A DNA stretch of 32,000 nt from Candidatus Helarchaeota ASGARD archaeon Hel_GB_B (GCA_005191425.1 SUPR01000013.1:1-32000); one strand, 5' to 3'. Shown: positions 4,772-8,171, numbered from the stretch's first letter. A program made the numbers and translations. The notes: generated by a model from the sequence alone, not told the origin.

Positions 4772-5329
4772 ATGGGTAGTAAATTGAAAGACGATGATTT
4801 TTTAGATATGCGGAAATTTGTAGATGATATATCTATTAATATGGATGATTATATCAAAATAAATTTTTTAACGCCTTATCAATTAAAAATTAAAAGCGAT
4901 GCAATATTTGAAGAATTACCATTATTTAAGAACACATCAAGTCCCAGATCTTATGATTGGAGCAAAAGGGTTGATGAAGAATTAGAAATTTTTGAGATTT
5001 TAAAACAAAAATATAGATATTCGGTTGGATATTTAGTATTTGATGATTTAAAGAAAAGACTCGGCAATGATAGAGTCTGGGAAACTAACTTTTATTTTTC
5101 TAGGGATTCTAGACCGTTAAAATTAGAAATAAGATTGTCTTTAATGTACCCAAGGCAAATTCCTTTAGTTAGTCGCTCAACTGGTGATTATCATGTCACG
5201 CTTACAGACAAATGTTTCGGATTACTTGAGCGACGTTGGCGTTCTGATGGAAAATATGGACTACCTCATTTTTGTACTATGATTGGTTATTATTATGCAC
5301 TAGAAAAAATGAGTAGAATTATTGATTAA
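4772..5329 (+). CDS. E2/UBC-like protein A
   Basis: Helix-1 motif KRVDEELE, then LEIRLSLMYPRQIP, and C148 in KCFGLLERRW matching the E2 pattern YP..P...C...L...W. No HPN motif. Paralogous to 8229-8762 and 7341-8171. Confidence 0.75.
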   Translation: MGSKLKDDDFLDMRKFVDDISINMDDYIKINFLTPYQLKIKSDAIFEELPLFKNTSSPRSYDWSKRVDEELEIFEILKQKYRYSVGYLVFDDLKKRLGNDRVWETNFYFSRDSRPLKLEIRLSLMYPRQIPLVSRSTGDYHVTLTDKCFGLLERRWRSDGKYGLPHFCTMIGYYYALEKMSRIID

Positions 5330-5351: not shown

Positions 5352-6413
5352 TTGAAAAATAAGAAATTTTGGTCATCTAAAAAAAATATTGATAGAATTC
5401 AAGATAATTATGATGATTTGGATTATGAAGAAAAACCATTAGTCACTCATATTATACTTCCAACTAAATTATGGCTGAAAGCACTTGAAGAAGGGCGTAA
5501 AACTTCAAATGAAGTTGGTTTTTTTATCATTGGGTTATTTAAAGGTAAAATTTGTTATGTTTATAACTTAATTGAGTTTGATTATATTGAACAATCAGGC
5601 GCTTTTATAGAATCTGGCGTCAAACGATTAGCAAGAATAAGGGCTGGGCTCCCTGTTGGGCTAAAAATTGTAGGTAATATGCATAAACACCCTGGATTTC
5701 TTGGATACAGCGGTACTGATAAAAGAGATTATTTAAAATATGGTGCCATGTCATCTCAAAATGCTTTTTTAATTTATATAGTTGAACCTTATGATGGAAT
5801 TGCAGGTTATACTGCAACAGAATCTAAAATTCATAAAATTGAAGTTGATATCAGAGATTTAGACCCTGATGAAATGTTGATTGAAAAAAATATTTCACTT
5901 CAAGTCAATTTTCCAATGGTAGTTCAAAAATCTGATTATATAAAAAGTATAAGGTTTAAATTAATTGACCAATTAAGTTCTGAAATATTGAAAAACTTTT
6001 CTCGAGGTAATCTAGTCGATAATGATGATTTTATACTCCCCGGTATGCTTACTGGAGCTGAAATTAGTGATAATTTAAAATTAAATCCAAAAATCCCTTT
6101 GTTTATTAAAAATATTGGAATAAATAAAGAAATGATTTTTCGGATTTTTATGGAACCTGAGAATACTTTAAATGATTTAAAAGAAATATTACTTGATATG
6201 ACTAAAATAAGCGATTATGATATTTCAAAAATTCAATTTTATGAAAATAATAAATTAGTCCCTAGTTATACTAAAATATCCAAAATTAACTCTGTTTTAG
6301 ATTGGAAAATCGAGTTATTACCTTTAAAAAAATTCAAATTAACATCTTTTAAGGATTTATTTGATATTATTATTAATTACTATATCTCTATAATTTATAA
6401 ATGGGTTGATTAA
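5352..6413 (+). CDS. JAB/MPN+ (JAMM) metalloprotease with C-terminal ubiquitin-like domain
   Basis: E54 (NEVG) and H111-K-H113-x6-S120-x2-D123. Residues ~248-324 align by eye with ubiquitin. TTG start. Confidence 0.85.
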   Translation: MKNKKFWSSKKNIDRIQDNYDDLDYEEKPLVTHIILPTKLWLKALEEGRKTSNEVGFFIIGLFKGKICYVYNLIEFDYIEQSGAFIESGVKRLARIRAGLPVGLKIVGNMHKHPGFLGYSGTDKRDYLKYGAMSSQNAFLIYIVEPYDGIAGYTATESKIHKIEVDIRDLDPDEMLIEKNISLQVNFPMVVQKSDYIKSIRFKLIDQLSSEILKNFSRGNLVDNDDFILPGMLTGAEISDNLKLNPKIPLFIKNIGINKEMIFRIFMEPENTLNDLKEILLDMTKISDYDISKIQFYENNKLVPSYTKISKINSVLDWKIELLPLKKFKLTSFKDLFDIIINYYISIIYKWVD

Positions 6414-7235
6414 ATGTTATTACCTATTGAAGAACGCGAAGAACTTGCACTTAATATGCCTAAAATATTTTCTCGAGTAATTTTTGCGGGTTATGATATA
6501 AGAAAATTTCTAAATACTACTGTATTCATTGCAGGTGCAGGTGGACTTGGAAGAATAGTTGCCGACATTTTAAATCGTTCTGGATTTGGTAAATTTATAA
6601 TAGTAGACAAAGATATTATAGAAGAGGAGAATTTAAATAGGATGAACCATAGTGAAGAAGATATAGGAAAAAATAAAGCCGAATCTCTCGCCAACTTCCT
6701 TGAACGTACCAGAAACCTTCCTAATATTGATAAAAAATTTTATGTCAAAACAGAATGGTATCAAGCAAATGTCATTGCGTGGGAAAAATTAGAAGAGATG
6801 ATTAAAAAATCGGACATTATTTTCACATGTTTCGATAATGAAGCTGCAAGAATTGAAGTGAATTTATTTGCTGTCCTTGAAAAAAAAATCCTTATAGATG
6901 GTGGAACTTCTGAAAATGCACTTAGGGGCATAATTAATAATGTAATTCCTGGTAAAACTCCTTGTTTAGAGTGTTATTATAGTCCAAACACTTTAATTGA
7001 CATTCAATCCGATGATCCAAAATTGCTTATTCCAAAAATTCCATGTGGGGCAAGTTTAGCAACAACAATGAATATAACTGGTAGCATTCAAGCTGACCAA
7101 GGAATAAAACTAATATTAAATGAGCCAATCCATTCACAAATTAGATTTTCATTAGAAAGAGAAATATCATTACAATATTTTGATTTTGATCCTAGACCAA
7201 ATTGTGAAGCATGTGGGAATCTAAATAATAAATAA
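6414..7235 (+). CDS. ThiF/MoeB-type E1-like activating enzyme
   Basis: GAGGLG, DKD..EENLNR, K in GKNKAE, D in TCFDN, two CxxC Zn pairs (PCLEC, NCEAC), putative catalytic Cys in KIPCGAS. ATG directly follows the JAB stop codon. Confidence 0.92.
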   Translation: MLLPIEEREELALNMPKIFSRVIFAGYDIRKFLNTTVFIAGAGGLGRIVADILNRSGFGKFIIVDKDIIEEENLNRMNHSEEDIGKNKAESLANFLERTRNLPNIDKKFYVKTEWYQANVIAWEKLEEMIKKSDIIFTCFDNEAARIEVNLFAVLEKKILIDGGTSENALRGIINNVIPGKTPCLECYYSPNTLIDIQSDDPKLLIPKIPCGASLATTMNITGSIQADQGIKLILNEPIHSQIRFSLEREISLQYFDFDPRPNCEACGNLNNK

Positions 7236-7340: not shown

Positions 7341-8171
7341 TTAATAAAAATGAATATTAATGGCTCTGGGCTTGGCTAAATTTATTTCTATCTGCGTGGA
7401 ATTTGCTATTGAAGTATAATAACCAAGTAATTGTATAAAATGCGCGATTCCCATTCTTCCATCAGACCTCCATCTGTTTTTCAAAATTCCAAAACATGCA
7501 TTTTTGTGTTCTCCGGCTGGACTAAACCATTTCCCAAAATAATATCCATCAGCTACTGGCATTACAAATGGATAATGTAGACTTAATCTAAGGTCGAATA
7601 CAACTCCATGAAATGAGCATTTAAATATTCTATCACTATTTGCCTGTTTATATATACTAAAACTGGAAAATTCTTCGCGTAATTTATATAAATAATTCAA
7701 TTTATTATATTCCTCTTGGAGTCTGTCCAACCAGTTTGGTGATGTCGGTTTTGCAACTATATTAAATAATGGAATTTCTCTTGAAATCAAATTATGATTT
7801 AATGATTTCTGAGGCTCTTTTTTTATTTTGGTTAATTTTCCAAGTAATAAATCTATTTTTAACCCAATTTCGTCCAAAATTTTAATAAAATATAAAAGTA
7901 TTCCCAACTTTTGTTGCGTCCTAAGAATTACTATACTATTCATAGATGTTTTAAAGAGCATTACTCCTGAAACATTTTGAATATAATAATAATCACCAAT
8001 TGCAAATGACAAACCTCTCTTATTAATAAAGTTAGAGAGAGCTGTCAAAAATTTTCCAAAACTTATATCTGAATATTTAATATTGCCTTGAACATCAGAA
8101 ATTACAACCTCTACATTAGTCCAAGGTGCCATTACAGACTTTATTTCGGTCGCAATATCTGAAAAATTCAT
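7341..8171 (-). CDS. Roadblock/LC7-like N-terminal domain fused to E2/UBC-like domain C
   Basis: Residues 1-112 show an alpha-beta-beta-alpha-beta-beta-beta-alpha pattern (VVISDVQGNIKYS ... LGILL). The C-terminal half has DRLQEE, LRLSLHYPFVMP and NACFGILKNRW...GIAHF. Confidence 0.7.
   Translation of the reverse strand: MNFSDIATEIKSVMAPWTNVEVVISDVQGNIKYSDISFGKFLTALSNFINKRGLSFAIGDYYYIQNVSGVMLFKTSMNSIVILRTQQKLGILLYFIKILDEIGLKIDLLLGKLTKIKKEPQKSLNHNLISREIPLFNIVAKPTSPNWLDRLQEEYNKLNYLYKLREEFSSFSIYKQANSDRIFKCSFHGVVFDLRLSLHYPFVMPVADGYYFGKWFSPAGEHKNACFGILKNRWRSDGRMGIAHFIQLLGYYTSIANSTQIEINLAKPRAINIHFY

Follow-up and report, generated by a model that had tools for sequence, protein, structure and literature searches.

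A JAMM protease with a built-in ubiquitin-type domain beside UBA5- and UFC1-like genes in Asgard archaea

Integral ubiquitin-like (Ubl) domains are a known regulatory device of eukaryotic cysteine-protease deubiquitinases. In USP7, USP14 and USP4, such domains dock the enzyme or regulate its catalysis, and USP7 (HAUSP) carries five of them at its C terminus together with an activating C-terminal peptide. Here we describe a zinc protease of the JAMM/MPN+ (JAB) family with a comparable architecture, encoded in a stretch of 32,000 nucleotides from Candidatus Helarchaeota ASGARD archaeon Hel_GB_B (GCA_005191425.1 SUPR01000013.1:1-32000; the whole stretch is called the window below). Its gene is flanked by genes for a conjugating enzyme (E2) resembling UFC1 and an activating enzyme (E1) resembling UBA5, the enzymes that act on UFM1 in eukaryotes. 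In the literature, we came across no account of a JAMM protease, in archaea or elsewhere, that bears two Ubls in tandem.

JAMM proteases are already known from archaeal and bacterial conjugation systems. The Rpn11 homologue of Caldiarchaeum subterraneum (CsRpn11), Pyrococcus JAMM1 and Haloferax HvJAMM1 share the catalytic fold and motif of the window protease (Z 15.9 to 16.1) and are likewise encoded with an E1, in Caldiarchaeum with an E2 too; CsRpn11 processes a ubiquitin precursor and deconjugates (PMC6043591). Unlike the window protease, these enzymes are single-domain proteins of ~130 to 170 amino acids without Ubl domains or helix, and their operons combine modifiers of the ubiquitin or SAMP type with E1s and E2s of other types. 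In the bacterial E1-E2-JAB operons (types 6a to 6e of Iyer et al. 2006, Bil, CBASS Cap2/Cap3 and Bub), the JAB protease is adjacent or fused to the E1 and accompanied by an E2 and a Ubl, as at the present locus; the fused and adjacent arrangements were set out by Iyer et al. 2006 (PMC1779556), where the sole prokaryotic Ubl-JAB fusion is one E. coli prophage TAPI-JAB protein. These bacterial systems are mostly linked to defense and use other E1 and E2 subtypes, and no JAB protein among them is described as carrying two Ubls in tandem.

As for the eukaryotic UFM1 pathway, a published survey saw UFM1, UFC1 and UFSP2 in eukaryotes only, with UFL1 and DDRGK1 originating in Asgard archaea (PMC10183829), and a 2026 study reported Ufm1 homologues in nine Asgard clades, describing no enzymes or neighborhoods (PMC12962969). 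Against this background, we think it fairly probable, largely by analogy with characterized enzymes, that the window protease is the JAMM isopeptidase of an Asgard Ubl system of the UBA5/UFC1 type and that its own Ubl pair and terminal helix serve to dock, regulate or oligomerize it.

The protease and its catalytic domain

The protease is encoded by one open reading frame (ORF), the parts of which are as follows.

5352-6413, + strand: protease ORF, with a JAMM domain, then a tandem Ubl pair, then a C-terminal helix (TTG start, 353 amino acids; from the ORF list and translation)
5436-5867, + strand: JAMM/MPN+ catalytic domain, residues 29-172 (Foldseek, VIA-align and family profile)
5511-5513, + strand: codon of the catalytic Glu54
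5682-5720, + strand: metal-binding motif H111-x-H113-x6-S120-x2-D123, all four residues invariant or nearly so
5868-6083, + strand: probable first, degenerate ubiquitin-like beta-grasp, residues ~173-244, with a variable loop containing PGMLTG (models, tandem-Ubl matches and hhalign)
6084-6326, + strand: second, ubiquitin-type beta-grasp as predicted, residues ~245-325 (predicted local distance difference test score, pLDDT, of 80-93; superposition on the parkin Ubl and ubiquitin; pattern conserved in 19 members)
6327-6410, + strand: linker and predicted C-terminal amphipathic helix (330-349), with the conserved W351 at its end (helix in both models)

The initial annotation had flagged 5883-6413, which corresponds to protease residues 178-353 plus the stop codon. 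Conservation was read from a close set of 7 homologues and a wide set of 20 family members, with 19 sequences for residues 172-353. E54, H111, H113, S120 and D123 do not vary within the close set and reach a conservation of at least 90% across the wide set, and the protease motif aligns to HxHx7SxxD of AfJAMM with a one-residue gap, its spacing being x6 rather than x7. For the JAMM domain, Foldseek returned BRCC36, Rpn11, the Caldiarchaeum Rpn11 homologue and CSN5 (E ~1e-9), and VIA-align returned PfJAMM1 (Z 16.1) and CsRpn11 (Z 15.9); BilC and Cap3 of the bacterial systems are also among the fold matches (Z 12.0 to 12.3). At the sequence level, the family profile matches AfJAMM (E 7.8e-5), and Pfam Prok-JAB is matched by 12 of the 20 family members (best E 3.3e-6), the window's own protease having no Pfam match at E up to 0.1. 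The JAMM/MPN+ fold and its active-site residues are intact.

One further stretch of this domain, EQSGAFI (residues 81-87; 5592-5612, + strand), is invariant in the close family and yet was modeled with pLDDT <50. By analogy with Ins-1 of Rpn11 and AMSH, this stretch may form a flexible loop that grips the substrate.

The seven close homologues are 55 to 62% identical to the window protease and share its start and end points; two of them are labeled by their source, as Helarchaeota and Lokiarchaeota. When 1.84 billion cluster representatives were searched exhaustively without a profile, only 27 relatives were recovered, 7 of them below 1e-30. The protease family occurs in 21 of 301 sampled genomes of the phylum and was not found in the two best-sampled families of that sample (0 of 69 and 0 of 76 genomes). 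The family is rare and patchy within Asgard archaea. The genome of the window has a single copy, and the window itself is archaeal by its eRF1, SMC and ScpB genes, with a G+C content of ~28%.

The built-in ubiquitin-like domains

Two AlphaFold2 models were made, one of the full-length protease from the 20-sequence alignment (mean pLDDT 81; predicted template modeling score, pTM, 0.64) and one of residues 172-353 from the 19-sequence alignment (pLDDT 85). The initial annotation had read the gene as a JAB protease with a ubiquitin-type domain and had named structure prediction of the C-terminal segment as a check; the active-site residues described above and the beta-grasp found by that prediction bear the reading out. 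The second Ubl is predicted to have ubiquitin topology, beta-beta-alpha-beta-beta-(3-10)-beta, built from strands at residues 248-253 and 262-267, a helix at 273-283, a short helix, and strands at 294-298, 301-303 and 316-320. It superposes on the Ubl of parkin (Z 10.1; root mean square deviation 1.6-1.7 A over 68-69 residues), on ubiquitin (Z 9.5; 1.9 A over 69 of 73 residues, at ~20% identity) and on the Get5 Ubl (Z 9.5-9.6).

The family profile over the second Ubl returned ubiquitin variants, polyubiquitin, elongin B and the midnolin Ubl as weak matches (E 0.07-3), those to ubiquitin chains lying at E 0.07-1.2. In Pfam, residues 240-330 gave weak matches to USP7_C2 (E 0.008) and TBK1_ULD and nothing else; PF00240 did not match them at E up to 10, and a genome-wide PF00240 scan at E up to 1 found nothing at the protease locus. 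The EPxxT motif, on which the likeness to ubiquitin had partly been based, is not conserved among the homologues.

The preceding residues had been considered a possible second beta-grasp (~178-246). Residues 172-246 have no Pfam match, and DSSP assigns to the first half of the C-terminal model three short strands (180-182, 221-223 and 241-244) and one long helix (197-216). Several structural matches, however, extend across both halves. The best Foldseek matches of the C-terminal model in the PDB are linear di-ubiquitin and ISG15 (139-156 columns, E 3e-7), as against 8.6e-5 over 79 columns for the best single ubiquitin. In a shape search of the ESM Atlas, the matches were clusters of polyubiquitin and of USP7 C-terminal Ubls, in which 102-139 residues aligned and spanned model residues 1-161, and talin F0-F1 aligned to the model over 115 residues. 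Further, hhalign related the first Ubl half to the second with E 1.3e-4 and a probability of 54%. On the strength of these indirect matches spanning both halves, residues 173-244 probably form the suspected additional beta-grasp, in a degenerate form.

Cleavage sites, the free modifier and the role of the C-terminal half

With a protease and a Ubl on one chain, and no free Ubl gene in the window's locus, the protein could be read as a precursor that matures itself, one of the options raised in the initial annotation. The JAMM domain would then cleave the chain to which it belongs, either at PGMLTG or beyond the second Ubl, and so free a modifier for the E1 and the E2s. Polyprotein-type Ubl precursors do exist elsewhere. 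However, PGMLTG is variable in the seven close homologues, and its loop is prone to insertions and deletions and has been deleted in several distant members. Across the 20 sequences, no Gly is conserved at either Ubl boundary or beyond the second Ubl, and the sole conserved Gly after residue 168 is G256, in the first hairpin turn of the second Ubl. The window protease ends in ...YKWVD with no terminal Gly, in agreement with the earlier remark that a terminal Gly-Gly is missing. In all members, the part beyond the second Ubl is a helical tail of 32-171 residues rather than a short cleavable one. Judged by these sequence features, the built-in Ubls appear to be non-conjugatable, having neither a free C-terminal Gly nor a Gly followed by a short removable tail.

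A different gene of the same genome has the features that the built-in Ubls lack.

G000:C160:55390-55653 (= L012:1498-1776), - strand: putative free modifier of this genome, 93 amino acids, ending in PDQLG-FR, on another contig than the window

In related loci, the counterpart of this gene belongs to the same gene cluster as the protease. The order small Ubl, E2, protease, E1, E2 occurs in three loci (L013, L014 and L015), and a fourth (L016) has a variant order with the small Ubl gene last; the former is likely the ancestral order, and the succession of protease and E1 is kept in every related locus read. The small proteins of these loci are homologous, 84-103 amino acids long, and end in D-x-L-G followed by 0-3 residues. 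In the wider small-protein family, the terminal L-G is present in 23 of 23 aligned sequences, 11 of which have tails of 1-15 residues beyond it; an L-G with a variable tail is what marks a processed modifier. The named sources of this family are Loki-, Hel-, Hod-, Freya-, Njord- and Thorarchaeota. Of the 301 sampled genomes, 16 hold the small Ubl, and all 16 are among the 21 that hold the protease, the two genes lying no more than 1.6 kb apart in 14 of the 16. We take this co-occurrence as linkage and not as a statistic, since related genomes are not independent. Its size and its terminal Gly with tail suit a putative modifier of the Ufm1 type. An Atlas feature search gave the free Ubl only sub-threshold beta-grasp leads (Rad60-SLD, ubiquitin and TmoB, at 0.77-0.84). 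In the present genome, the free Ubl gene adjoins a gene for a membrane protein, a homologue of which neighbors E2 genes in another locus (L007).

In profile comparisons, neither built-in Ubl showed any similarity to the free Ubl family, and the built-in domains are therefore not recent copies of the modifier. This dissimilarity stands against the self-matured precursor, as does a dedicated L-G Ubl that probably headed the ancestral operon, that this genome also encodes and that occurs together with the protease. We rejected that idea after comparing the PGMLTG loop, the Gly conservation, the tail lengths and the linkage to the free Ubl, and we regard it as highly improbable.

The comparison also bears on the possibility that a built-in Ubl fills the JAMM domain's own Ubl groove as a pseudo-substrate, keeping the enzyme off until a partner or conjugate displaces it. 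The second Ubl is of the ubiquitin type, solved JAMM enzymes grip Ubl on a defined surface (CsRpn11:ubiquitin complexes are among the fold matches), and the arrangement of domains in the full-length model is moderately defined, as its pTM indicates; in addition, autoregulation through Ubl domains is known for USP4 and USP7. The built-in Ubls, however, have no detectable sequence similarity to the free Ubl that would be the substrate, and we consider such self-inhibition quite unlikely.

The C-terminal segment itself had been described as hydrophobic or amphipathic and as a potential membrane tether. A helix is indeed modeled there (330-349, pLDDT ~55-72), but its hydrophobicity is modest: over its best 19 residues, the tail averages 1.10 on the Kyte-Doolittle scale, compared with ~1.6 for membrane spans, and it contains D, N, K and S. 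If the helix were a tail anchor, it would hold the protease at a membrane much as ODR4 anchors UFSP2 at the endoplasmic reticulum, the Ubl pair acting as a spacer or binding module. Its position at the extreme C terminus, in the most hydrophobic stretch of the tail, would suit this role, as would the Kyte-Doolittle value of 1.65 reached by one close homologue. ODR4 has been described as a pseudoenzyme of the MPN fold that carries a transmembrane anchor (PMC10952357, PMC9638016). An Atlas shape search with the full model gave its longest alignment, 194 residues (model 30-248), with an ODR4-like cluster at template modeling (TM) scores of 0.42/0.50, a value below 0.5 by query that makes the match a lead only. 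Shorter relatives of the protease are encoded directly upstream of Sec61-beta in two metagenomic loci. On the other hand, ODR4 gave no signal in Pfam scans of the 20 members, in the Atlas feature search or in PDB fold searches. Among the close homologues, the tail values range from 0.66 to 1.65 and most lie at 0.7-1.1, and in every distant member the helix is replaced by a charged coiled coil, the longest such tail having 171 residues. On hydropathy and this replacement by charged coiled coils, we rejected a membrane span as the main explanation and view a tether as rather unlikely.

We therefore return to a dedicated JAMM isopeptidase whose C-terminal half docks or regulates it. Such an enzyme would trim the tail of the free ~90-amino-acid Ubl (DQLG-FR in this genome), exposing its Gly, and would reverse Ubl conjugates, as CsRpn11 does in its operon. 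The Ubl pair and the helix would be a permanent, non-cleaved and non-conjugatable part of the enzyme, and the C-terminal half probably docks the protease on the conjugation machinery or on the neighboring AAA protein, tunes its activity and/or oligomerizes it. These roles are proposed by analogy with the Ubl-bearing USP7, USP14 and USP4, and also with BRCC36 and Rpn11, the best fold matches, which assemble through their C-terminal helices. Like USP7/HAUSP, USP14/Ubp6 and USP4, the window protein joins a Ubl-specific protease to tandem Ubls that appear not to be cleaved and to a terminal tail, and the USP7 array is among the shape matches. Unlike it, the USPs are papain-fold cysteine proteases of eukaryotes, whereas the window protease is an archaeal zinc JAMM with two Ubls; the resemblance is one of architecture and not of descent. 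A division of roles between fused and stand-alone Ubls follows the reasoning of Iyer et al. 2006 for ThiF, where a Ubl fused to ThiF beside a stand-alone ThiS was argued to play a different role from it (PMC1779556). With this architecture, the contribution of integral Ubl domains to a protease can be studied in a simple system, and it places a Ubl-bearing enzyme of the deubiquitinase type in an evolutionarily informative setting.

Several observations weigh against this interpretation. The first beta-grasp is degenerate and its support indirect. The free Ubl gene of this genome lies outside the window's locus; its product has no sequence match to Pfam Ufm1 or ubiquitin, a scan of the genome with Pfam Ufm1 did not pick it up, and its profile matches no solved structure in the PDB. 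Finally, no partner was identified for the Ubl pair. A targeting role, one of the options raised at the outset, is accordingly favored by elimination and analogy. A complex prediction of the E1 with residues 172-353 gave an interface score (ipSAE) of 0.00 in both runs, which lacked controls and give no verdict either way.

Neighboring genes and the relation to UFMylation

The genes around the protease are as follows.

4772-5329, + strand: UFC1-like E2, paralogue A, 185 amino acids, upstream of the protease in the same unit (UFC1 profile match)
6414-7235, + strand: UBA5-like E1, 273 amino acids, its start abutting the protease stop codon (ThiF Pfam 7e-40; UBA5 best in the PDB)
7341-8171, - strand: UFC1-like E2, paralogue B, 276 amino acids, with an extra N-terminal domain of ~100 amino acids (paralogue alignments, UFC1 profile, weak Pfam UFC1)
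8229-8762, - strand: UFC1-like E2, paralogue C, 177 amino acids (paralogue alignments, UFC1 profile)
8911-10593, + strand: single-domain AAA protein with an N-terminal coiled coil, 560 amino acids (AAA Pfam 1.3e-20)

The best PDB match of the E1 is UBA5 (1.7e-22), the next family being MccB (2e-14), and its nucleotide loop, two CxxC pairs and Cys211 are all invariant. It ends a few residues past the second and last CxxC, without a C-terminal tail; in human UBA5, the C-terminal tail region is the site of the UFM1- and UFC1-binding sequences. A profile of eight E2 paralogues from three loci matches UFC1 structures best (3e-8 over ~135 positions, including the catalytic Cys), other E2s scoring 8e-4 or weaker, and the Pfam UFC1 model gives the paralogues weak matches only. 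The extra N-terminal domain of paralogue B is conserved in L007. An AAA gene follows the operon both in the window and in L013 and lies beside small-Ubl and E2 genes in L008 (3 of the loci read); the AAA protein of the window best matches the D1 domain of Cdc48/p97 in the PDB (1e-26). At the Walker B position, this protein has LLIEN instead of the usual hhhhDE, and it may therefore bind ATP without hydrolyzing it.

The locus thus recalls eukaryotic UFMylation in several respects: the E1 is closest to UBA5 and has its catalytic Cys in the equivalent loop, the E2s are closest to UFC1, and the putative modifier, like UFM1, has a single terminal Gly and a short removable tail. The genome also contains a UFL1-like ORF, and in eukaryotes an MPN fold with a C-terminal anchor (ODR4) accompanies the protease UFSP2. 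In contrast to UFMylation, the protease is a JAMM enzyme with an intact active site and not a C78 cysteine protease, the modifier is not recognizable as Ufm1 by sequence, the E1 has no tail past its last CxxC, and there are three E2 paralogues. PF07910 (peptidase C78, UfSP) has no match in the genome, control genomes being equally silent, and the protease position of the operon is occupied by the JAMM enzyme. A UBA5-like E1, three UFC1-like E2s, a Gly-terminated putative modifier and the protease form one conserved Asgard operon, and the origin of UFMylation is therefore directly testable in vitro.

A bolder view would be that the operon is a surviving proto-UFMylation system whose de-modifying enzyme is an active JAMM protease. 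Its MPN domain and hydrophobic C-terminal helix would have given rise to the catalytically dead, membrane-anchored ODR4, and also to the MPN domain found in C. elegans UfSP. In this scenario, the Ubl pair would supply in trans the recruitment of modifier and E2 that the minimal Asgard E1 lacks, and the linkage to Sec61-beta that is seen now and then would indicate an ancestral association with the translocon. In eukaryotes, such recruitment is the task of the C-terminal binding sequences of UBA5 or of the ubiquitin-fold domain of canonical E1s. We consider this scenario unlikely as a whole.

The link to Sec61-beta is seen in a few places. Two shorter relatives of the protease (256-268 amino acids; L017:2106-3087 and L018:281-1346, both metagenomic) lie in strings of small Ubl, protease and Sec61-beta genes, with an overlap between the Sec61-beta gene and the stop codon of the protease in L017. 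In four of five genomes of one genus (G021, G032, G078 and G100), Sec61-beta is found 4-9 kb from the protease, and in the genome of the window it is located elsewhere (C128:49080-49196). This proximity may reflect either a translocon link or lineage synteny.

Two other sets of genes were noted in this genome. The UFL1-like ORF (726 amino acids; G000:C160:19235-20890, - strand) matches Pfam E3_UFM1_ligase over the curated cutoff and DDRGK weakly, and it is on the same contig as the free Ubl, ~35 kb apart. Two Pfam ubiquitin matches over the cutoff occur at G000:C128:60827-61027 (- strand) and 65684-65854 (+ strand), one of them within an ORF of 434 amino acids, which suggests that a separate system of the ubiquitin type exists in this organism alongside the one described here.

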